Under the pieces are notes generated by a model, which made no database searches, had not been told where the DNA came from, and worked only from the letters and a program-made list of their open reading frames with translations. From the sequence record PZ212788.1: a stretch of DNA of 64,000 bases. The stretch is one strand, 5' to 3'. This document shows, in pieces, positions 4,713 through 16,876 of this stretch. The stretch comes from a phage. The translations under genes and the position numbers were made by a program. Each line of letters starts with the position of its first letter. Within the stretch, counting starts at the first letter, position 1.

Positions 4713-5996
4713 TCATTCAAGCACCTCCCAAGTGTCTGGGTTAACATTTCGGACGCAGATACCGACAGGGAATTGGTAGTTGTTGTCTTCTGTCCTTGCT
4801 TGGTATTTGAAGGTGACAAACTTGCCGATCATTTCCTGCATCCTGTCATAGCTACGCTCCTCGTGCGTGCCTTTCATCTTCATTTTAACAACAACACCTT
4901 CCTTGTCAACACAGATAAGAACACCTTCATCATTCTTATCTTTCTCAACGTCAATAACTTTCACCTCTGCGTCGTTGAACTTTTTCCATTTCAATGCTTC
5001 AGATGTTCGCTGACCATACTCATATTTACCGCAGAAATTACGCATGATAGTACCTTCATATCCTTCGGACATGAATATACCAACAGATTCTTCGCAATGA
5101 TCAACTGTGTACGCAAGCTCTGCGTCAACAACCTTGATATGATCAAGCATCAGAGTGGTAACGGTATCCTCTGCATCCATAAGATCCTTGCAGCGTCCAG
5201 ACTCTGTTTCTGGATCCCACCACACCTTGTCGCTAGGAATATCAAAAATGTGATACTCCAGATCGTAGCTACAGTATCCACCGTAACGCAAATCATCACG
5301 AACAGGCTCAACATCGACAGGAATATCTACCTTGTTGAAGTTTTTGTATGTTGATAAGCCTGCCTTAATTGCTGCATGACGGCGTTTTTTATCTGCCTCA
5401 TAGTCTTTATCGATCTCGGCCTGAATCTCTTCCTGTGTGCGCCACCGTTTAGCAAGAGACACTATTTTCTGCAAAGGAAGACCATGAATGTATAGTTCCC
5501 CATCAAGTTGTTTAATCCCAGTGGTAGAATGGAAAGAACGAAGTTGCTCTAAAAGCTTTCCTTGAATAGGGTAGGACTTATTACCACGGGAAATAAATTT
5601 AGGCTCACCATTTTGGAAAACAACAAGCAGACGAAGGCCATCTAACTTACGCAAGATCCAGCAAGGTAATTTAAGTGCCTTGCCACGCTTCAGGTAGTCA
5701 TGCACCAGCATAGGTAAAAGATCAACACCCTGCTCGCAATCTTCCATGTTTTCAACATACCCCAGACGGACTTGTTTTTCCCACTTGCTGATAGCCTCAA
5801 GCTCGGCCTGTTGCTCAGCTGTAGTCTCGTTGGCACGACCTACGTTTTTAGGTGTACATACCGTCTCTTTGTACTGCAATTTACCGTCAAGCTTGCCAAA
5901 CTCTACGATAACCTTTTCGCCATCAGTGAATACTTTCCACTGTTGGTAGCTGCCATCTTTGTTCAGTGCGTACAGTGTTGTTTTGATTTGATGCAT
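4713..5996 (-). CDS. ATP-dependent DNA ligase
   Basis: Adenylation motif I KLDGLR, motif IV-like EGTIMR, motif V-like KWKKF; 427 aa. Confidence 0.8.
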   Translation of the reverse strand: MHQIKTTLYALNKDGSYQQWKVFTDGEKVIVEFGKLDGKLQYKETVCTPKNVGRANETTAEQQAELEAISKWEKQVRLGYVENMEDCEQGVDLLPMLVHDYLKRGKALKLPCWILRKLDGLRLLVVFQNGEPKFISRGNKSYPIQGKLLEQLRSFHSTTGIKQLDGELYIHGLPLQKIVSLAKRWRTQEEIQAEIDKDYEADKKRRHAAIKAGLSTYKNFNKVDIPVDVEPVRDDLRYGGYCSYDLEYHIFDIPSDKVWWDPETESGRCKDLMDAEDTVTTLMLDHIKVVDAELAYTVDHCEESVGIFMSEGYEGTIMRNFCGKYEYGQRTSEALKWKKFNDAEVKVIDVEKDKNDEGVLICVDKEGVVVKMKMKGTHEERSYDRMQEMIGKFVTFKYQARTEDNNYQFPVGICVRNVNPDTWEVLE

Positions 5997-6622: not shown

Positions 6623-7336
6623 TTAAATATACTCTGTTACATCCTTGAAGCTCGAAGGCTTCATAATCTTACCTTTACTGTCAAGGAATATAATAACTTT
6701 ATTACCGTTGTAGAACTCCTCTTTAGCAACGAAACCTTCGTAGCGACCACCAAAACGACGCTCAAGATCTTCAATCTCTAACTCTATGAGCAATTCAGTA
6801 GACATATCTGCACTGGCACCGTGAGAATATCGTAGATGGTTGATCCGTGCAAACTTGCTGTCATTAGATTTGAGAACCTTCCGCATCATCCCACACACAT
6901 CGCCGCGAAGCTGGAACAGCAAAGCTGTTGACAACTCCGCTAAGCGGTAAGCTGACGCTCTTTGCTTGGATGTGTTTTTCGCAGCGATCAGTGTATCATA
7001 GAACTCACCGATCTTGAACTTAAGACCTCGTGGATTATCAAACAGGTTTGACCACTTTTCGTGATTATCATTAACAAGATAAGCGGCATAACTTGTGACA
7101 ACGTGAAGATCGCAGGCCTCTTTTAGCAGGTGATCTCCACCATCACCTTTCTCCAGCTCTTCCAAAACCTCATTGAACTCTTCCTCAATGAAGCTAAGCT
7201 GTAATTCGAATGGTGTGTATGATTTTTTCACTTTAGCTGCCACACGGTTCCAGTTTTCCACCCAGTTGGCAGACCAAAGGTAGTTTTCAGGCTGAGACAG
7301 TTTTTCCAGGTTGTCGATCAGTTTAGTATTCAGCAT
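6623..7336 (-). CDS. hypothetical protein; possible all-alpha NTP pyrophosphohydrolase (MazG/dimeric dUTPase-like)
   Basis: EExxE-rich helix FIEEEFNEVLEELEKGDGGDHLLKEACD resembles MazG-type metal-binding helix; weak. Confidence 0.3.
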   Translation of the reverse strand: MLNTKLIDNLEKLSQPENYLWSANWVENWNRVAAKVKKSYTPFELQLSFIEEEFNEVLEELEKGDGGDHLLKEACDLHVVTSYAAYLVNDNHEKWSNLFDNPRGLKFKIGEFYDTLIAAKNTSKQRASAYRLAELSTALLFQLRGDVCGMMRKVLKSNDSKFARINHLRYSHGASADMSTELLIELEIEDLERRFGGRYEGFVAKEEFYNGNKVIIFLDSKGKIMKPSSFKDVTEYI

Positions 7337-7349
7337 TAAAGGTCTCCTT

Positions 7350-8111
7350 TTAAAGTTCCATAAAGTTTTCTACAGTTTCAATAAATGCTTTATCAGAGAA
7401 AGCGTCAACAGCACCGTTAAACCATACAGGGATCCCGCGATCCTCATATTGATAAAGGTCGCTACGTGAAATGCCACTTCCATCTGCACTCTGCGAATCA
7501 TACTTGTTTACAATCAGCAGTTTTGTGCCTTTACAAGTAGCAGGAAACAATTCCCAGTTAAAATTAATAACTGTGTTAGAACAACCTACCAGGATCACCA
7601 TATCATTGCTTGTGAGAGATGTCAACAGGTCATACATGTCTGTATACTTAGGAGCAACCTCACCGAAGAACACTACATTGGGCTTAACCCAGGTATACTT
7701 GCCTGTATCTACCTCCGTGTATCCGATATTTTTAATTACATCATTACCTTCAGCATCTTCGTAGGTGATTTCAGGCAAATACCCGTGGACATGTAAAATA
7801 TCTTCATGTTTTACACCAGCACGCTCCAGCAAATCATCTACATTGGTAGTAAGGTTGATCACACGACCAGACCAGCGGGAATACCACTCAGCGATCCGAA
7901 GATGTGCAAGGTTAGGATCAACACTGCCCAGAGCTACACGACGTGCATTGTAAAAGTCATGCACCTTATAGTAGTTCTTGGCAAAGGTGTGGATGTTGCA
8001 CACCTCATCGATGCTGAAATTCTCCCACATTGCAGTGCTACCAGATCGGAAAGTGGGAATACCAGATTCAGCGCTCAAACCAGCACCGGAGATAATAATC
8101 AGTCGTCGCAT
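7350..8111 (-). CDS. Sir2 (sirtuin) family NAD-dependent protein
   Basis: Sirtuin motifs ISGAGLSAESGIPTFRS, TTNVDDLLERAG, HVHG, PNVVFFGE; no four-cysteine zinc ribbon. Confidence 0.75.
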   Translation of the reverse strand: MRRLIIISGAGLSAESGIPTFRSGSTAMWENFSIDEVCNIHTFAKNYYKVHDFYNARRVALGSVDPNLAHLRIAEWYSRWSGRVINLTTNVDDLLERAGVKHEDILHVHGYLPEITYEDAEGNDVIKNIGYTEVDTGKYTWVKPNVVFFGEVAPKYTDMYDLLTSLTSNDMVILVGCSNTVINFNWELFPATCKGTKLLIVNKYDSQSADGSGISRSDLYQYEDRGIPVWFNGAVDAFSDKAFIETVENFMEL

Positions 8112-8119
8112 AAGTGTCC

Positions 8120-8470
8120 TCAGTAGATGTTTTGTTTAATCTCTATTCCAAACTTCTTGAATGAGTCAGCAGCAAGCATAAATTTACGAGCTGCCGATGG
8201 ATTAGAAGTATGCACGAAAATAATCACGTTGTCAATAAGTGGTGGCTTTCCGAATACAAGTTTCTCCTCTAGCGCAGAGAAGCAGTCGTACCCTTCAAGC
8301 ACTTCACCTAGATCATTGTCAAAATGCCACTCAGAAACGCGCCTGTAGAGCTTTCTATTATCGTTAATAAAATCCATGAACTCAGAAGAGTTCTTCAGCC
8401 AAAGAGCATCTTGGATTCCGTAATTTGACGGATCTCTCAAGTCATCTAGCCACACAATCAACTTCTTCAT
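8120..8470 (-). CDS. REC/flavodoxin-like small protein, translationally coupled to RNA ligase
   Basis: ATGA start/stop overlap with RNA ligase; KLIVWLDD, HFDNDLG, IFVHTSNP resemble receiver-like fold; function inferred from context. Confidence 0.4.
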   Translation of the reverse strand: MKKLIVWLDDLRDPSNYGIQDALWLKNSSEFMDFINDNRKLYRRVSEWHFDNDLGEVLEGYDCFSALEEKLVFGKPPLIDNVIIFVHTSNPSAARKFMLAADSFKKFGIEIKQNIY

Positions 8471-9402
8471 TGCATATAGTCCTCGTTGTGAAAATAGCAA
8501 TCAAGTATCTCACGGCGTTCCTGCTCCAGGAGGCAGTTCCACACATCTTCTGTGTAATTGCTACGAATGAAGTTTACCATGCCATAAAACTCTTCGTCAA
8601 TACGTTTAAAGATATCATCATCCCAAATCTTCCAAGCTTTACCCCTCATTACGGCCTTCCGTGCCAAATAGTATGGAGACTTGATCTTCAGCTGCAGGTC
8701 ATAAGGGTAGTAAGGCTTACGGATCATATACCCTTCGCCCCTTGTTTCTGCAGCTAATTCTTTTGCATAGCTGAACGGGATTTCACGCACAGTGTGAGGA
8801 CGTTTTGCACCAAGGTATTTGGCAATCCCATCTAAAGCTGCTTCTGGTAGCATTATTCCAGAATCATTATATCTGCAACCTATCAAATATGCGCCATGGT
8901 CTTCTTGAACAATATGCGGATCTGAAGGGTGACAAATTTCAAACATGAATGTCATGTTTTCATTGCCCATAACCTTCTTGATAAGATCTAAATTACCACA
9001 TTGCTCTTGGATGGTTTCCTTTGCAAGGTTACAATATGGAGAATCAAGAGACCCGGTTGTTGAGAACAATAGGTCACCTTTATGAGATGATACCACACCA
9101 AGGAATCCGTTCTTTTTCTCTACCGCAGTCACAAGCTTATTGTCAGGCAGGTTGGTGGAGTTTTCTCCCAAGTTAAACACTTTTGTGAAGGGCCATGCCA
9201 CAACATTTCCTTCATTACCTACAACAATGCCTCGGCACTCCAGTAAACGAGGGGACAAATGCCATAAATTGTTGTAAAATACTTTTCTAGCATATTTATA
9301 GATCTTTAACCCGAGATCTGGGTAATACCTACTGGTTACAAGACCTTTATCAACTAGGTCGTCTGCATTAAAATACTTCATCATACGTTCCTCATTTGTC
9401 AT
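8467..9402 (-). CDS. rnlA: RNA ligase, T4 Rnl1 (RnlA)-like
   Basis: PRLLECRGIVVG and VFNLGEN align with T4 Rnl1 PDALECRGIMFE / FFNLNEN; nucleotidyltransferase motif I KKNGF, motif IV EGYMIRK, motif V LKIK. Confidence 0.75.
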   Translation of the reverse strand: MTNEERMMKYFNADDLVDKGLVTSRYYPDLGLKIYKYARKVFYNNLWHLSPRLLECRGIVVGNEGNVVAWPFTKVFNLGENSTNLPDNKLVTAVEKKNGFLGVVSSHKGDLLFSTTGSLDSPYCNLAKETIQEQCGNLDLIKKVMGNENMTFMFEICHPSDPHIVQEDHGAYLIGCRYNDSGIMLPEAALDGIAKYLGAKRPHTVREIPFSYAKELAAETRGEGYMIRKPYYPYDLQLKIKSPYYLARKAVMRGKAWKIWDDDIFKRIDEEFYGMVNFIRSNYTEDVWNCLLEQERREILDCYFHNEDYMQ

Positions 9403-9413
9403 TTTGTCAGTCT

Positions 9414-9442
9414 ATCCTGTCACACAAATAACCTAGTGTCAA
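9414..9442 (-). promoter_or_regulatory. candidate sigma70-like promoter for RNA ligase operon
   Basis: Minus-strand TTGACA-N17-CAGGAT; weak -10. Confidence 0.3.
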
Positions 9443-9445
9443 CAC

Positions 9446-9474
9446 TTGAAATTAACAAAACAGTTAGATATACT
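9446..9474 (+). promoter_or_regulatory. sigma70-like promoter TTGAAA-N17-TATACT
   Basis: Good -35/-10 with 17-nt spacer, back-to-back with minus promoter; lies upstream of GGGGG RBS and ATG 9503. Confidence 0.55.
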
Positions 9475-9502
9475 ATCGTTGAAATTAAAACGGGGGGTCA
9501 CT

Positions 9503-9913
9503 ATGTCTAAAATGCTATATATCGTGCGTGGTCTACCAGGGTCTGGCAAATCAACACTGGCAAATGCGCTATCTTTAGAGGGTCTGTATCCACATTTTGA
9601 GAACGACATGTTCTGGTATGACGATGACGGCAATTACAACTGGGATGCAAGTAAAGTAACACTCGCAGCGAAATGGTGCAAAGATAACGTAGAAGATATG
9701 ATGCGTATGGGATACGACCGTATCGTGGTAAGTAATACGTTTACAAAAGAAAAACATGTGCAGGAATATGTTGACATGGCAATCAGTCATGGGTATAGTT
9801 ATACCGTGATCGTGGTTGAAAACCGCCACGGTAATAAAAGCATTCATGATGTTCCAGACAAGGTTGTGGATCGTATGGAACGCCAGCTTAAAAACTGCAT
9901 TAAACTTAAATGA
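9503..9913 (+). CDS. P-loop polynucleotide kinase-like protein
   Basis: Walker A GLPGSGKST directly after start, size and layout like T4 Pnk kinase domain; start set at 9503 because ORF-track Met at 9446 lies upstream of the promoter -10. Confidence 0.6.
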   Translation: MSKMLYIVRGLPGSGKSTLANALSLEGLYPHFENDMFWYDDDGNYNWDASKVTLAAKWCKDNVEDMMRMGYDRIVVSNTFTKEKHVQEYVDMAISHGYSYTVIVVENRHGNKSIHDVPDKVVDRMERQLKNCIKLK

Positions 9914-9920
9914 GGAATGT

Positions 9921-10475
9921 ATGAAATACTTTGTAACAAGCGACACACACTTTCTCCACCAGCGGGTCATGGAGTTTGATTCATGTCAAAAACACAGATC
10001 TCAGTATGATCACAATCTTGACAGTATGAATGCGGGAATCATCGCCGAATGGAACTCTGTTGTGTCACCTGCAGACACTGTGTTCCACTTGGGAGATATT
10101 GCGTGCACTAATGATAAGAATATCAACAACTTACTTCCAGATATTCTAAATATGTTGAACGGACATATTATTCTTGTTCGTGGCAACCATGACACAAGGA
10201 CGACTGTCAGAATTATGAAAGAGTTCGGTCATGAGGTTGTAGATTATTACGAGCTTCGCCACAACAAGAATTTGATCTGTATGAGCCATTACCAATTTGC
10301 AAAGTGGAACAGAAAGCCTCACGGATCAGTCCAACTGTTCGGTCATGCTCACGGAACCACACAACAGTTGTTTGGCAGGCAGCTTGATGTCGGTTGGGAT
10401 GTGTGGGGGAGACTCTTACCATTAGAAGAGGCATACCGTATTGCAATGAGTTTTGCTATTGACAGCGGGGAGTAA
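9921..10475 (+). CDS. calcineurin-like metallophosphoesterase (candidate polynucleotide 3'-phosphatase)
   Basis: Motifs SDTHF, HLGDI, RGNHD, GHAH; GAGG RBS; start 9921 eight nt after kinase stop. Confidence 0.6.
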   Translation: MKYFVTSDTHFLHQRVMEFDSCQKHRSQYDHNLDSMNAGIIAEWNSVVSPADTVFHLGDIACTNDKNINNLLPDILNMLNGHIILVRGNHDTRTTVRIMKEFGHEVVDYYELRHNKNLICMSHYQFAKWNRKPHGSVQLFGHAHGTTQQLFGRQLDVGWDVWGRLLPLEEAYRIAMSFAIDSGE

Positions 10476-10522: not shown

Positions 10523-10873
10523 ATGAAAGATGGGGATAAGCTGCTATATCTTAAAGTCCCCCTTGAAATACTGTCTATGTCAAAAGTTTTGAATGACACA
10601 ACTGGAGAGGTTGTTGTTCTTGACTTGTATGACAAGATCGTATACTGCTACCTGCACAACTGGTATAAGCTTGGAGGAAATTCACGCTTCACACCCAGCA
10701 CAAGGAAAATTGCAGCAGATGTTGGGATAAAGAAAACAAAAGCAGCAGCGTGCGTTAAAACTTTAGAGTGTGCAGGGGTGGTTGAAACATCCACACAAGG
10801 GAGAGGTAAAAGATGCACATTTTCCAAAGTTTTGCCACCAGAAGAAGTTATTCGGATGTCAACAACTGGTTAG
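10523..10873 (+). CDS. winged-helix/HTH DNA-binding protein (candidate iteron-binding protein)
   Basis: HTH-like segment STRKIAADVGIKKTKAAACVKTLECAGVVE; gene directly precedes iteron array. Confidence 0.4.
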   Translation: MKDGDKLLYLKVPLEILSMSKVLNDTTGEVVVLDLYDKIVYCYLHNWYKLGGNSRFTPSTRKIAADVGIKKTKAAACVKTLECAGVVETSTQGRGKRCTFSKVLPPEEVIRMSTTG

Positions 10874-13411: not shown

Positions 13412-13486
13412 GCCCTGTTAGCTTAGTGGATAAAGCAGCGGCCTTCTAAGCCGTTGACACTGGTTCGAGTCCAGTACGGGGTGCCA
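13412..13486 (+). tRNA. tRNA-Arg (anticodon TCT)
   Basis: Hand-folded cloverleaf: acceptor GCCCTGT/ACGGGGT, D arm GCTT/AAGC, anticodon stem GCGGC/GCCGT with loop CTTCTAA, T arm ACTGG-TTCGAGT-CCAGT, discriminator G, encoded CCA. Confidence 0.8.
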
Positions 13487-13490
13487 AATT

Positions 13491-13577
13491 GGGGAGTTAT
13501 CCCGTAGGGGTAGCGGTGTAGACTGTAAATCTATTGTCATTGCGACTCGGGTGGTTCGACTCCACCACTCCCCACCA
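13491..13577 (+). tRNA. tRNA-Tyr (anticodon GTA), type II
   Basis: Acceptor GGGGAGT/ACTCCCC, anticodon loop CTGTAAA, long variable arm, T arm GGTGG-TTCGACT-CCACC, CCA encoded. Confidence 0.8.
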
Positions 13578-13692
13578 AATTTATAGTTTTAAATGCATAA
13601 ATCATACAGATAATGGCATTGATATTTATCGTCGTTTATACTAGTCACTAACTGCTCGAAAATCAGTGTCATTATCAGTATTGTTTATAAAT

Positions 13693-13778
13693 GAGGGTAG
13701 GGAGCAATGGTGCTCAAGCGGTCTTGAAAACCGTCCCGTTGAGGATGACTTGATGATGGTTCGATTCCATTACCCTCA
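13693..13778 (+). tRNA. tRNA-Ser (anticodon TGA), type II
   Basis: Acceptor GAGGGTA/TACCCTC, anticodon stem GCGGT/ACCGT with loop CTTGAAA, long variable arm, T arm ATGG-TTCGATT-CCAT. Confidence 0.75.
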
Positions 13779-13879
13779 GCCATATTGTTGACCTTGTAAT
13801 TAATCGAAAGCCGGAAGCAGAACCGGATTATCAAATGTTACAGTCGTCATCGCCGACTAGCAACATGGTCAACATACTG

Positions 13880-13976
13880 AGCTAGGTAAGCCCTTTGGCA
13901 AGGGCGAGGATTTTTAATCCTGAAAATAGACGAGGTAGTCGTTGAATACATAGGTGGTTCGATTCCATCACCTAGC
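13880..13976 (+). tRNA. atypical tRNA-like element (97 nt), anticodon hairpin presenting TTT (Lys-like), with about 30-nt variable-region insertion
   Basis: Acceptor GCTAGGT/ACCTAGC, D arm GCCC-TTTGGCAA-GGGC, hairpin AGGA-TTTTTAA-TCCT, T arm GGTGG-TTCGATT-CCATC; too long for canonical tRNA. Confidence 0.4.
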
Positions 13977-13985
13977 ACCTTTTTT

Positions 13986-14061
13986 GCTGATGTAGCACAA
14001 TTGGTAGTGCAATTGATTTGTAATCAATAGGTTGCAGGTTCAAGTCCTGCCATCAGCACCA
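13986..14061 (+). tRNA. tRNA-Thr (anticodon TGT)
   Basis: Acceptor GCTGATG/CATCAGC, D arm GCAC-AATTGGTA-GTGC, anticodon stem ATTGA/TCAAT with loop TTTGTAA, T arm GCAGG-TTCAAGT-CCTGC, CCA encoded. Confidence 0.8.
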
Positions 14062-14062
14062 T

Positions 14063-14137
14063 GGCCCTGTAGCTGGAAGGTTCAAGCAAGCGACTCATAA
14101 TCGCCAGACGGTGGTTCAATTCCACCCAGGGCCACCA
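14063..14137 (+). tRNA. tRNA-Met or tRNA-Ile2 (anticodon CAT)
   Basis: Acceptor GGCCCTG/CAGGGCC, anticodon loop CTCATAA, T arm GTGG-TTCAATT-CCAC, CCA encoded. Confidence 0.7.
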
Positions 14138-14148
14138 AATAATAAATA

Positions 14149-14225
14149 CTCCGCGTAGCTCAGCTTGGTAGAGCGCCTGATTTGGGATCAGGAGGTCGAG
14201 TGTTCGAATCACTCCGTGGAGACCA
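14149..14225 (+). tRNA. tRNA-Pro (anticodon TGG)
   Basis: Acceptor CTCCGCG/CGTGGAG, D arm GCTC-AGCTTGGTA-GAGC, anticodon stem CCTGA/TCAGG with loop TTTGGGA, T arm GAGTG-TTCGAAT-CACTC, CCA encoded. Confidence 0.8.
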
Positions 14226-15045: not shown

Positions 15046-15329
15046 GAGTTGCTACACTGTTTATTGCGTGCTTGTTATTATGTGGGTGTGCAACCAGTGT
15101 TGAGAAAGAATACAAGATTGACCCTCCAGATGTAGGAAGGTTGATTGTTAAACCCCCAGAAGGTGCCATGAAACCACCTGCTAAAGCTATGCCTTTGAAG
15201 AAAGGTGCGCCAGATGCAGTGAACTCTGGCATTATGAGGGATAATAATTTGTCTTGTAGCAATGATAGAGCTAAATTGATCATTTTGCAAGACTATATTA
15301 GAACACTGTTTCCAAAGGAGAGAGGTTAA
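15042..15329 (+). CDS. o-spanin (Rz1-like outer-membrane lipoprotein)
   Basis: Signal peptide with lipobox LLCGCA, proline-rich mature part, AGGAGG RBS. Confidence 0.55.
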   Translation: MRVATLFIACLLLCGCATSVEKEYKIDPPDVGRLIVKPPEGAMKPPAKAMPLKKGAPDAVNSGIMRDNNLSCSNDRAKLIILQDYIRTLFPKERG

Positions 15330-16876
15330 TGTCTAAGATTTACGGACCGTGTTCTGAAAAGCAGAAGATGATCCTCGAAAACGATGCAGATATTTTGGTA
15401 ATCGGCGGTGCCGCAGGGTCTGGCAAGTCGTTCCTCTTGCAGTTGATGCCGCTTAAAATTATTGATGACCCCCACAGCTCTGTAGTTATGTTCCGAAGAA
15501 CAACTCCCCAGTTGGAAGGTGAGGGTGGGCTATGGCCTAAAGCAGTAGCTATTTATAGTGATCTGCCTGAAAACATTAAGCCAAAGTTCAGAGAGAAGGA
15601 TCATAAGTTCATTTTTCCACGGTTTGATCCGAATACTGGTAAGTGGGATAGAAGCAAAAAGGGAGCTGTTGTAAAATACTGCCATATGGAGTATGTACAA
15701 GATAAGCTTAACCATCAGGGGCTTGAGTACACCATGGTTTGCTTCGATGAGGGCACGCAGTTCGAATGGGAGCAGATAGACTACCTGATGTCTCGTCTGC
15801 GATCTCAGTCAAAGTATCCATCAAGGATGGTTATCAGCTGTAACCCTGATTCAGAACACATGCTTGCCAAACTGGTTAGATGGTGGTTGGACGATGAAGG
15901 GTATCCAGATCCGGAGAAATGCGGTAAGAAAAGATATTTTATCCGACGCGACGGTGAATTTATTTGGGGAGACTCTAAGGAAGAGTTGATAGAGAAATAC
16001 ACCACGGTTAACGGACTGGGTGTAGAGATCAAGCCAAGACCGTTGTCATTCTCGTTCATAGGCGCAACAATATTCGATAATCCTGTCTGTTTGAGAGACA
16101 ACCCAGAATACCTTGCTTTCCTAGAAGGTCTACCAGAGCTGGAAAAAGCTCAGCTTCTCCATGGTAACTGGTTTGCAAAGCCTGAGGGTGCAAACTATTT
16201 TCAAAGATCTTTCCTTCGTGATGCCGATAGAGTACCACTTGGATCAGTATCTTGTAGGGCATGGGATAAGGCAGGAACCGAGAGAACTTCCGGTAATAAA
16301 TTTCCTGACTTTACTGCCAGTATTAAGGTAAGTAAAGATAGCGACGGCTTTTATTACCTGTCCGGTGATTATTGTCCTGAGAACGTGGATGACGGGAGGT
16401 ATTCCACAGGTCTGGAAGGCAAGTTCTGTAAAAAGGCTGGTGAACGAGATGTGATCATCAGGAAACAGGCGCAGTTCGATGGTGATGATTGCATAATCGT
16501 CTTCTCTGTGGACCCAGGACAGGCAGGTAAGAGTGAGTTCTTAACCTCCTCCAGATCCTTGCTCGCCGAAGGGTTTAGGGTTGAAGAAGACCCAATGCCT
16601 TCCAACAAATCTAAACTGACAAGGTTCTCACCTTTTGCCAATCTTGCCCAACAAGGGATGGTGAGGATTGTAAAATCCAGTTTCCATCCTGATACTCTGG
16701 AAGCATTTCTGACTGAACTTGAAAAATTCAACGGGGAAAGATCAACATTTAACAGAAAAGACGACTGGGCCGACTGTGTAGCTTCTGCGATTAATTTCCT
16801 GGAGAAAGAGGAGGTAGCACTTCCTTGTGTGATTCCATCAATCTCATCACCTTCTATGTTCAAGCGTTTTATCTAA
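15329..16876 (+). CDS. terL: terminase large subunit
   Basis: Walker A ILVIGGAAGSGKSF, Walker B-like VCFDEGTQF, 515 aa, position ahead of portal. Confidence 0.85.
   Translation: MSKIYGPCSEKQKMILENDADILVIGGAAGSGKSFLLQLMPLKIIDDPHSSVVMFRRTTPQLEGEGGLWPKAVAIYSDLPENIKPKFREKDHKFIFPRFDPNTGKWDRSKKGAVVKYCHMEYVQDKLNHQGLEYTMVCFDEGTQFEWEQIDYLMSRLRSQSKYPSRMVISCNPDSEHMLAKLVRWWLDDEGYPDPEKCGKKRYFIRRDGEFIWGDSKEELIEKYTTVNGLGVEIKPRPLSFSFIGATIFDNPVCLRDNPEYLAFLEGLPELEKAQLLHGNWFAKPEGANYFQRSFLRDADRVPLGSVSCRAWDKAGTERTSGNKFPDFTASIKVSKDSDGFYYLSGDYCPENVDDGRYSTGLEGKFCKKAGERDVIIRKQAQFDGDDCIIVFSVDPGQAGKSEFLTSSRSLLAEGFRVEEDPMPSNKSKLTRFSPFANLAQQGMVRIVKSSFHPDTLEAFLTELEKFNGERSTFNRKDDWADCVASAINFLEKEEVALPCVIPSISSPSMFKRFI

Follow-up and report, generated by a model that had tools for sequence, protein, structure and literature searches.

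An earlier note, made from the letters of a phage sequence alone, had described a split RNA-repair cassette within a stretch of 64,000 nucleotides (sequence record PZ212788.1; hereafter the window), and here we follow up that description through profile, fold and gene-neighbourhood comparisons. The cassette lies between positions 7350 and 10475. These 3,126 bp are 100% identical to the deposited Vequintavirus Escherichia phage vB_EcoM_10C2_SA_NWU, and at least 90% identity over the same length is retained in 119 of the 120 deposited phage genomes that match; the matching records are rV5-like myoviruses of the genus Vequintavirus. GenBank labels already in place for the cassette are RNA ligase, polynucleotide kinase, (putative) phosphoesterase and sirtuin or sirtuin-domain deacetylase.

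On the minus strand, the locus contains genes for a MazG-like all-alpha nucleotide pyrophosphohydrolase of 237 amino acids (6623–7336; phrog_671 and motif), a Sir2-family (sirtuin) protein of 253 amino acids (7350–8111; PF02146, phrog_2162), a 116-amino acid 'cyclic-phosphate processing receiver' or cREC (8120–8470; PF20274) and an Rnl1-family ATP-dependent RNA ligase whose longest open reading frame (ORF) comprises 311 amino acids (8467–9402; PF09511, phrog_562). A spacer containing a sigma-70-like site (9403–9502) separates these from the plus-strand genes, which encode a stand-alone P-loop kinase of 136 amino acids (9503–9913; PF13671 AAA_33, phrog_2071, phrog_505) and a calcineurin-like dinuclear metallophosphoesterase of 184 amino acids (9921–10475; PF12850, PF00149, phrog_547). 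Judged by their strong homologues (PHROG E 1e-34 to 1e-108) and the wide conservation of the cassette, the five ORFs that the earlier note had listed (Sir2, the small ORF, ligase, kinase and phosphoesterase) are real genes and not chance reading frames. All five are present where it had placed them; it had not included the MazG-like gene, and had given no role to Sir2 or the receiver-like protein. The ATGA overlap between ligase and small ORF at 8467–8470 could likewise be read directly from the minus strand across the junction, tatatgcaATGAagaag, in which TGA closes the ligase and ATG opens the cREC gene.

The ligase belongs to the Rnl1 family by both profile and fold, in agreement with the earlier note, and is neither a DNA ligase nor a capping enzyme. 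It matches PF09511 (RNA_lig_T4_1) with 55.3 bits against a curated cutoff of 28.3, covering model positions 1–227, and phrog_562 with E 7e-66; its fold is nearer to Rnl1 and Trl1 than to Rnl2, Rnl3, DNA ligases or capping enzymes. Searches of PDB sequences with the single sequence and with a nine-sequence profile gave no match, and the placement among solved structures came from the fold comparison only. Residues K96, N98, G99, E155, E223-G224, K239 and K241 are invariant across 41 homologues (41–98% identity); by position, and by analogy with T4 Rnl1, we take these to supply the lysine of motif I (KxxG), the glutamate of motif III, and motifs IV (EG) and V (KxK). The protein fails the T4 RnlA equivalog TIGR02308 (38.7 bits against a cutoff of 242.25) and is about 60–70 amino acids shorter than T4 Rnl1. 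By these comparisons it is a distinct subfamily of approximately 300 amino acids with a shorter C-terminal region, and not a T4 RnlA ortholog. Translation likely starts at Met7 (9384) or Met8 (9381) rather than at 9402, which would give a protein of 305 or 304 amino acids, because a GAGGA Shine-Dalgarno sequence stands 4 nt before Met7 and none before 9402, because homologues open with MKF or MKY, because GenBank record MZ501061 annotates a coding sequence of 918 nt, and because residues 1–6 are disordered in the structure model (predicted local distance difference test, pLDDT, <50).

The kinase matches PF13671 AAA_33 (E 1e-10), phrog_2071 (E 3e-58) and phrog_505, 'polynucleotide kinase' (E 4.7e-10), and belongs to a family of stand-alone proteins with at least 7,989 matches of about 130 amino acids each. 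When profiles built from 9 and from 30 homologues were compared with the PDB, the best full-length match was Pnkp1 (4xrp) of the Capnocytophaga Pnkp1-Rnl-Hen1 complex (E 1.2e-4), followed by PSTK (E 1.8e-4), T4 Pnk (E 5e-4) and the kinase domain of C. thermocellum Pnkp (CthPnk; E 1.5e-3), with alignments spanning about 100–130 residues. The lowest E-value overall belonged to RazKIN, a stand-alone fungal RNA 5'-OH kinase of tRNA splicing, over the P-loop segment only; gluconate, adenylate and deoxynucleoside kinases also align over the P-loop only. The closest full-length solved relatives are polynucleotide and tRNA kinases, and not deoxynucleoside monophosphate (dNMP) kinases. Across 30 homologues, G10, G13, G15, K16, T18, D35, N78, T79 and R108 are invariant and S17 nearly so. 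D35 is aligned with an aspartate in the RDDF segment of Pnkp1, and presumably corresponds to the catalytic aspartate of T4 Pnk, the general base after strand 2. A scan of ten ORFs between 4.7 and 10.9 kb gave no HAD domain, and the protein, unlike T4 Pnk, consists of a kinase domain alone, with no DxDxT acylphosphatase domain attached; the separation of kinase and phosphatase had been correctly seen. Together, these features point to a polynucleotide (RNA) 5'-OH kinase.

The metallophosphoesterase, which matches PF12850, PF00149 and phrog_547 (E 1.3e-51), has a complete set of dinuclear-site motifs (DxH, GD, GNHD/E, H and GHxH), and D8, H10, G58-D59, G88-N89-H90-D91, H123, G141-H142 and H144 are invariant in 10 homologues. 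Its profile finds Aquifex aq_1665 (1xm7) in the PDB with E 4.7e-17, whereas the CthPnkp phosphatase 4j6o scored E 0.47 with no significant stretch, and lambda phosphatase was not among the matches of this search. The description of a phosphatase of the 'bacterial Pnkp type' therefore holds at the level of the superfamily only; at family level the protein is of the aq_1665 type, and not of the CthPnkp or lambda type. Enzymes of those two types are described as hydrolysing 2',3'-cyclic phosphates (PMC2190708). The window protein may itself be a 3'-end healing enzyme, acting on a 2',3'-cyclic phosphate or a 3'-phosphate.

The receiver-like fold proposed for the small protein was borne out: it has a receiver fold and matches PF20274 (cREC) above the cutoff. 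The conserved residues D9/D10 follow strand 4–8, D51/D53 stand at or after the end of strand 45–51 and T88/S89 at or after the end of strand 82–88, that is, at the ends of strands 1, 3 and 4, where receivers have their phospho-acceptor pocket; these positions were read from a secondary-structure string and not from three-dimensional superposition, and hhalign of the cREC alignment against a CheY sequence gave no usable alignment. The protein ends directly after strand 5, and the last helix of the canonical receiver domain appears to be absent. In phages, cREC genes neighbour RNA ligases, the kinase, the metallophosphoesterase, Sir2 and MazG, with no histidine kinase among the phage loci examined. 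Distant cREC genes adjoin an RNA ligase of either family or a phosphoesterase, and cREC stands beside ligases of both families in distant lineages (loci L013, L049, L074 and L098). A search for fusions yielded 1340 profile matches among 1.84 billion representatives, nearly all stand-alone proteins of about 100–130 amino acids, and the ten longest of the top 150 contained no second Pfam domain. Matches in bacterial genomes (24–37% identical) have mixed housekeeping contexts that are uninformative, with the exception of a locus in a metagenome-assembled genome of Clostridia where cREC is followed by one ORF and then a phosphoesterase. Two database matters concern the same gene. Genes for cREC of 114–118 amino acids in NC_052658.1 (gp254; locus L022, 14306–14662) and OM386659.1 are labelled 'putative RNA ligase and tail attachment protein', evidently through transfer from the neighbouring ligase. 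A 354-bp contig of Dyella japonica DSM 16301 (NZ_JPLA01000145.1; L112) encodes part of a cREC that shares 97% identity with the window protein; phage DNA contaminating a draft assembly is the most likely source.

The sirtuin that the earlier note had placed beside the cassette is indeed a PF02146 protein (E 6.9e-28; phrog_2162 E 1.5e-108). Its nearest solved relatives are E. coli CobB (1s5p, E 3e-21) and SIRT5, making it a class-III-like sirtuin. It has the GAGxSxxSGIPTFR, TTNVD and HVHG motifs and keeps the catalytic histidine; it lacks zinc-binding cysteines, and the cysteine positions of CobB are not conserved. The MazG-like ORF matches phrog_671, 'nucleotide pyrophosphohydrolase' (E 5.7e-22), and E52, E53, E56 and D76, forming an EExxE...D pattern, are invariant in nine homologues. 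It shows a weak profile match to the phosphoribosyl-ATP pyrophosphatase (PRA-PH) 1yvw; the window protein has no Pfam match of its own, and a homologue carries PF01503 weakly. In PADLOC, the kinase gave weak P-loop matches and nothing else, and Sir2, cREC, ligase and phosphoesterase matched no defence system; on this result, the idea that the cassette is a hijacked defence system was rejected.

Gene linkage was assessed at 80 IMG/VR kinase loci, 42–51% identical to the window kinase, which were scanned with local hidden Markov models over a range of about 6 kb; many of these loci finish at contig ends, and the counts are lower bounds. A phosphoesterase of the window family occurs within about 6 kb of the kinase at 57 of the 80 loci, directly adjacent at 28, and an RNA ligase of any kind is found near the kinase at 44 (Rnl1-type at 26, Rnl2-type at 20). 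Both partners are present at 34 loci and neither at 13. The remaining components are far rarer, cREC being near the kinase at five loci, MazG at two and Sir2 at one, and a DNA ligase of the window type at three. In three unrelated metagenomic contexts, the kinase is followed by the Metallophos gene, two of them showing stop/start overlap, and two of the three have a ligase of Rnl1 or Rnl2 type nearby. INPHARED contains 665 records with the ligase and 616 with the kinase, compared with 1,101 for the phosphoesterase family, which is broader, and 343 for cREC, which is narrower; ligase and kinase counts run closely together by host genus (Escherichia 199/198, Pseudomonas 175/173, Klebsiella 36/36, Acinetobacter 24/24). 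The kinase, phosphoesterase and RNA ligase, of either Rnl1 or Rnl2 type, are a conserved trio in many unrelated phages, within which ligase and kinase are the unit most tightly linked and most widely found, usually together with the phosphoesterase. By comparison, cREC, Sir2 and MazG are lineage-specific additions, and cREC has joined the ligase–kinase unit several times. A NUDIX gene lies 1–4 kb upstream of the kinase–phosphoesterase pair on the same strand at 28 of the 80 loci, many of them freshwater phage contigs; because cREC–Nudix fusions are reported in the literature, Nudix may be a further recurrent partner of the repair set.

Among the closer relatives, gene order has been shuffled between Vequintavirus, Seunavirus/Mydo-like phages and Phapecoctavirus while membership has been kept. 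Seunavirus/Mydo-like contigs have all components on one strand (phosphoesterase ... ligase-cREC-kinase-(x)-Sir2-DNA ligase ... MazG), Phapecoctavirus nepoznato has the order cREC-Y16D-phosphoesterase-ligase-kinase ... DNA ligase ... MazG, and of these only Vequintavirus has the divergent arrangement. The window also encodes an ATP-dependent DNA ligase at 4713–5996 (minus strand; phrog_114, E 2.8e-83), and in all the Vequintavirus-like and Phapecoctavirus relatives that we examined such a gene is found no more than a few kb from those for RNA repair. The Phapecoctavirus phiWec188 (an Escherichia phage, LC739537.1) keeps cREC, a T4_Y16D-like ORF, phosphoesterase, MazG, Sir2 and NADAR, with Sir2 sitting 32 kb from cREC, and neither Rnl1-type ligase nor kinase was detected in its whole genome (tblastn E <= 1e-3); in its relative nepoznato, ligase and kinase are present between phosphoesterase and DNA ligase. 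phiWec188 offers a naturally occurring deletion variant with which the system can be dissected. In some relatives, genes for nicotinamide adenine dinucleotide (NAD+) salvage (NAPRTase and phosphoribosyl pyrophosphate (PRPP) synthetase) lie immediately upstream of the cassette in divergent orientation (L018, 3376–6107; L020, 1380–3949), and L020 has a NADAR gene downstream (15081–15605); the 64-kb window contains no NAD+ salvage or NADAR genes. About 18–23 records named 'Campylobacter phage', with C. jejuni as host, are approximately 98% identical to E. coli rV5-like phages over the cassette, which suggests mislabelled hosts or contaminating coliphages.

Neither the system nor its proposed role is new: both were published for rV5 in 2022, and the present finding is a correct rediscovery. 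Iyer, Burroughs, Anantharaman and Aravind (Viruses 2022, section 3.7.3; PMC9503650) described a sirtuin-centred RNA-repair neighbourhood of the rV5/Proteus phage Mydo type, with "Escherichia phage V5" (rV5) as prototype, which in medium-sized proteobacterial phages comprises sirtuin, T4-like tRNA ligase, cREC, nucleotide kinase, MazG-superfamily pyrophosphatase and, though not in every case, calcineurin-like phosphoesterase; they proposed that the sirtuin removes RNA 2'-phosphates as KptA/Tpt1 do, and noted that cREC was experimentally uncharacterised. An Aravind-group paper of 2021 on jumbo phages had named cREC and predicted it to be a cyclic phosphoesterase; like the 2022 account, it is computational. 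The window has the same component list, with all six genes within 6623–10475, belongs to the prototype's genus, Vequintavirus, and differs in nothing material. Our analyses add the subfamily of the phosphoesterase, counts that show the trio to be a widespread core, and a natural variant without ligase and kinase.

Compared with T4 Pnkp and Rnl1, which counter PrrC, the window kinase stands alone, without the fused DxDxT/HAD phosphatase, the putative 3'-end enzyme belongs to the metallophosphoesterases, and cREC, Sir2 and MazG are extra. The kinase is in the same clade as those of C. thermocellum Pnkp/Hen1 and Capnocytophaga Pnkp1-Rnl-Hen1, and these bacterial systems also employ a dinuclear metallophosphoesterase for 3'-end healing, the role predicted for the window enzyme. 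A stand-alone ligase with a stand-alone RNA kinase is found in the split Trl1 version of Mucorales (PMC11571804, PMC10946426). Relative to fungal Trl1 plus Tpt1, the window lacks a 2H cyclic phosphodiesterase or Tpt1/KptA among the ORFs scanned, and its sirtuin and cREC would have to substitute.

The analyses establish to which families the proteins belong, that their catalytic motifs are intact, which folds they have and that the linkage of the genes is conserved; the enzymatic activities set out below, the RNA acted upon and the way in which cREC and phosphoesterase share the work are predictions drawn from these results. On balance we favour, with rather better than even confidence, an rV5-type phage RNA-repair cassette with a three-gene heal-and-seal core; the linkage pattern of ligase, kinase and phosphoesterase fits what is expected of a split Pnkp plus ligase. 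In this scheme, the 136-amino acid kinase would phosphorylate the 5'-OH end of a broken RNA, the aq_1665-type phosphoesterase would strip the 2',3'-cyclic or 3'-phosphate from the other end, and the Rnl1-family ligase would join the resulting 3'-OH to the 5'-phosphate through a lysyl-AMP at Lys96. The likely substrates would be host or phage tRNAs nicked in the anticodon loop by host defence ribonucleases. Our best guess for cREC, given its repeated joining of the unit and its coupling to the ligase here, is an accessory factor at the RNA 3' end, expressed with the ligase, that probably opens or handles the cyclic phosphate. The lineage has further added two NAD+- or nucleotide-linked components, Sir2 and the MazG-like protein, with an uncertain role in the pathway. 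The earlier claim that the locus supplies every activity needed to heal and seal tRNA is backed by comparative genomics where the split gene set is concerned; the functions themselves are predictions from sequence. None of the outcomes that the earlier note had named as refuting its reading occurred, and that reading is largely right.

Several observations weigh against this scheme. It places two candidate 3'-end enzymes, cREC and the phosphoesterase, in one cassette; the aq_1665 family has no established substrate, and proven RNA end-healing belongs to another family. The kinase has only weak matches in the PDB, with E-values between 1e-3 and 1e-5. The linkage counts come from the 80 top-scoring loci among more than 563; many of these are truncated at contig ends, and there is no random-locus control behind the counts. 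Since phiWec188 has neither ligase nor kinase, cREC, phosphoesterase, Sir2 and MazG cannot all depend on the ligase. Finally, literature searches gave no experimental study of cREC or of sirtuin/Tpt1-like phage RNA repair, yielding only reviews and the two comparative papers of the Aravind group. Two of the alternatives retain some weight because cREC and phosphoesterase are redundant and because of the phiWec188 genome.

The first, which we consider unlikely, is the hypothesis of Iyer et al. (2022), an NAD+-dependent pathway akin to Trl1/Tpt1. Here, cREC and/or the phosphoesterase would open the cyclic phosphate to a 2'-phosphate, kinase and ligase would join the ends, Sir2 would act as an ADP-ribosyltransferase like KptA/Tpt1 to remove the 2'-phosphate with NAD+, and cREC, phosphoesterase or MazG would clear the ADP-ribose cyclic phosphate by-product. 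The published component list matches the window, but the nearest solved relatives of its Sir2 are ordinary protein deacylases, and we know of no sirtuin that acts on RNA 2'-phosphate. Furthermore, the single Sir2 among 80 kinase loci implies that the widespread trio works without it, the Sir2 of Phapecoctavirus is remote from cREC, and no 2H or KptA domain occurs among the ORFs scanned. A stricter version, in which cREC is a catalytic receiver that opens 2',3'-cyclic phosphates, the sirtuin is a Tpt1/KptA-like, NAD+-dependent RNA 2'-phosphotransferase and the ligase works like a fungal or plant tRNA ligase and not like T4 Rnl1, seems to us distinctly improbable. If true, it would be the first case of a sirtuin that acts on RNA, and cREC would be the first receiver domain of its kind with enzymatic activity; the idea of an NAD+-dependent 3'-end role for cREC and sirtuin is already in print as a hypothesis, and only its proof would be new.

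A little less probable again is that two unrelated modules are neighbours by chance, such that kinase and ligase, with or without the phosphoesterase, repair RNA, while cREC, Sir2 and MazG, perhaps with the phosphoesterase, serve in counter-defence by acting on NAD+/ADP-ribose derivatives or on cyclic-nucleotide/cyclic-phosphate immune signals and not on RNA ends. This would account for phiWec188, which keeps cREC-Y16D-phosphoesterase, MazG, Sir2 and NADAR without ligase or kinase, and is consistent with the reported fusion of cREC to Nudix and its ties to ADP-ribose-processing domains in jumbo phages, with the NAD+ salvage genes that adjoin the cassette in relatives and with the NUDIX gene upstream of the kinase–phosphoesterase pair at 28 of 80 loci. 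However, cREC is coupled here to the ligase by the ATGA overlap and, in distant lineages, turns up again beside RNA ligases of two families, and the phosphoesterase pairs most often with the kinase.

Very little probability attaches to repair of DNA ends, in which kinase and phosphoesterase would clean 5'-OH/3'-phosphate nicks for the DNA ligase at 4713–5996. In every Vequintavirus-like or Phapecoctavirus relative that was examined, no more than 3 kb separates the DNA ligase from Sir2, cREC or MazG, and T4 Pnk-type kinases and MciKIN are described as accepting DNA too; but DNA ligase of the window family is found at only 3 of 80 kinase loci against 44 for RNA ligase, and the phyletic counts of RNA ligase and kinase match, so that this explanation was rejected on neighbourhood counts. 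Least credible of all is that the 'RNA ligase' is mainly a tail-fibre attachment factor like T4 gp63 with unrelated neighbours, as some database labels ('RNA ligase and tail fiber protein attachment catalyst', for instance) would have it, since these labels are inherited from T4 gp63, all catalytic residues are invariant in the 41 homologues, and the gene, which lies on the other strand from the tail genes, is linked to kinase and phosphoesterase.

The spacer between ligase and kinase (~9400–9500) is the main coding-strand switch of the window, and the cumulative GC-skew minimum of the window, at 8–10 kb, coincides with it. The 100 bp assigned to it by the earlier note is correct for the ORFs (9403–9502) and becomes about 118 bp with the corrected ligase start. 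Of the divergent promoters proposed there, one was found: a sigma-70-like site, TTGAAA-17-TATACT, precedes the kinase operon on the plus strand at 9446–9474 and is kept as TTGACA-17-TAATAT in a relative ~90% identical in protein. The other, for the ligase operon, was not; a candidate in the spacer, TTGACA followed by a 22-nt gap to TAGACT, was rejected, and no acceptable minus-strand site was seen. The third gene to the right of the spacer, at 10523–10873, encodes an HTH_36/DUF6945 protein matching phrog_12838, 'replication initiation protein' (E 5e-80), and a replication origin may lie nearby.

To the left of the cassette are minus-strand genes of DNA metabolism; to the right are small ORFs, tRNAs and then a plus-strand late block (spanins, terminase, capsid and tail). 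Seven tRNA genes (13412–14225, plus strand as for the kinase; ARAGORN, Rfam) begin 2.9 kb from the phosphoesterase, matching the 3 kb or so given in the earlier note, and comprise Arg-UCU, Tyr-GUA, Ser-UGA, an atypical Lys-UUU-like tRNA, Thr-UGU, Met/Ile-CAU and Pro-UGG. The atypical gene (13881–13979, plus strand) is 99 nt long; ARAGORN gives it a four-base anticodon and no identity, while the anticodon loop reads by eye as UUUUUAA, that is Lys-UUU, and GenBank MZ501061 labels it tRNA-Lys. Its extra arm of ~28 nt is unusual for tRNA-Lys. It folds as a cloverleaf with an extra hairpin (minimum free energy -34.2 kcal/mol, z -3.7), and its score against the Rfam tRNA model is 35.5 bits. Because PrrC and PARIS target tRNA-Lys(UUU), an altered phage copy near the repair cassette may be a second line of escape.

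Defences that cleave tRNA are common in E. coli; the literature covers Cas13, PARIS, retron effectors and anticodon nucleases, and PrrC and RloC are known as well. Phages respond to such defences with tRNAs of their own or with repair enzymes. To our knowledge, T4 Pnkp/Rnl1 is the only phage-encoded RNA-repair pair that has been characterised biochemically, while each component of the trio occurs in 616–1101 INPHARED records, that is, in hundreds of sequenced phages. The remaining value of the cassette is as a biochemical target and not as a discovery. Its study could yield the first activity assigned to cREC, and likewise to the aq_1665 family of phosphoesterases, and could show how a large group of phages that are candidates for therapy, Vequintavirinae and Stephanstirmvirinae among them, evade tRNA-targeting immunity.

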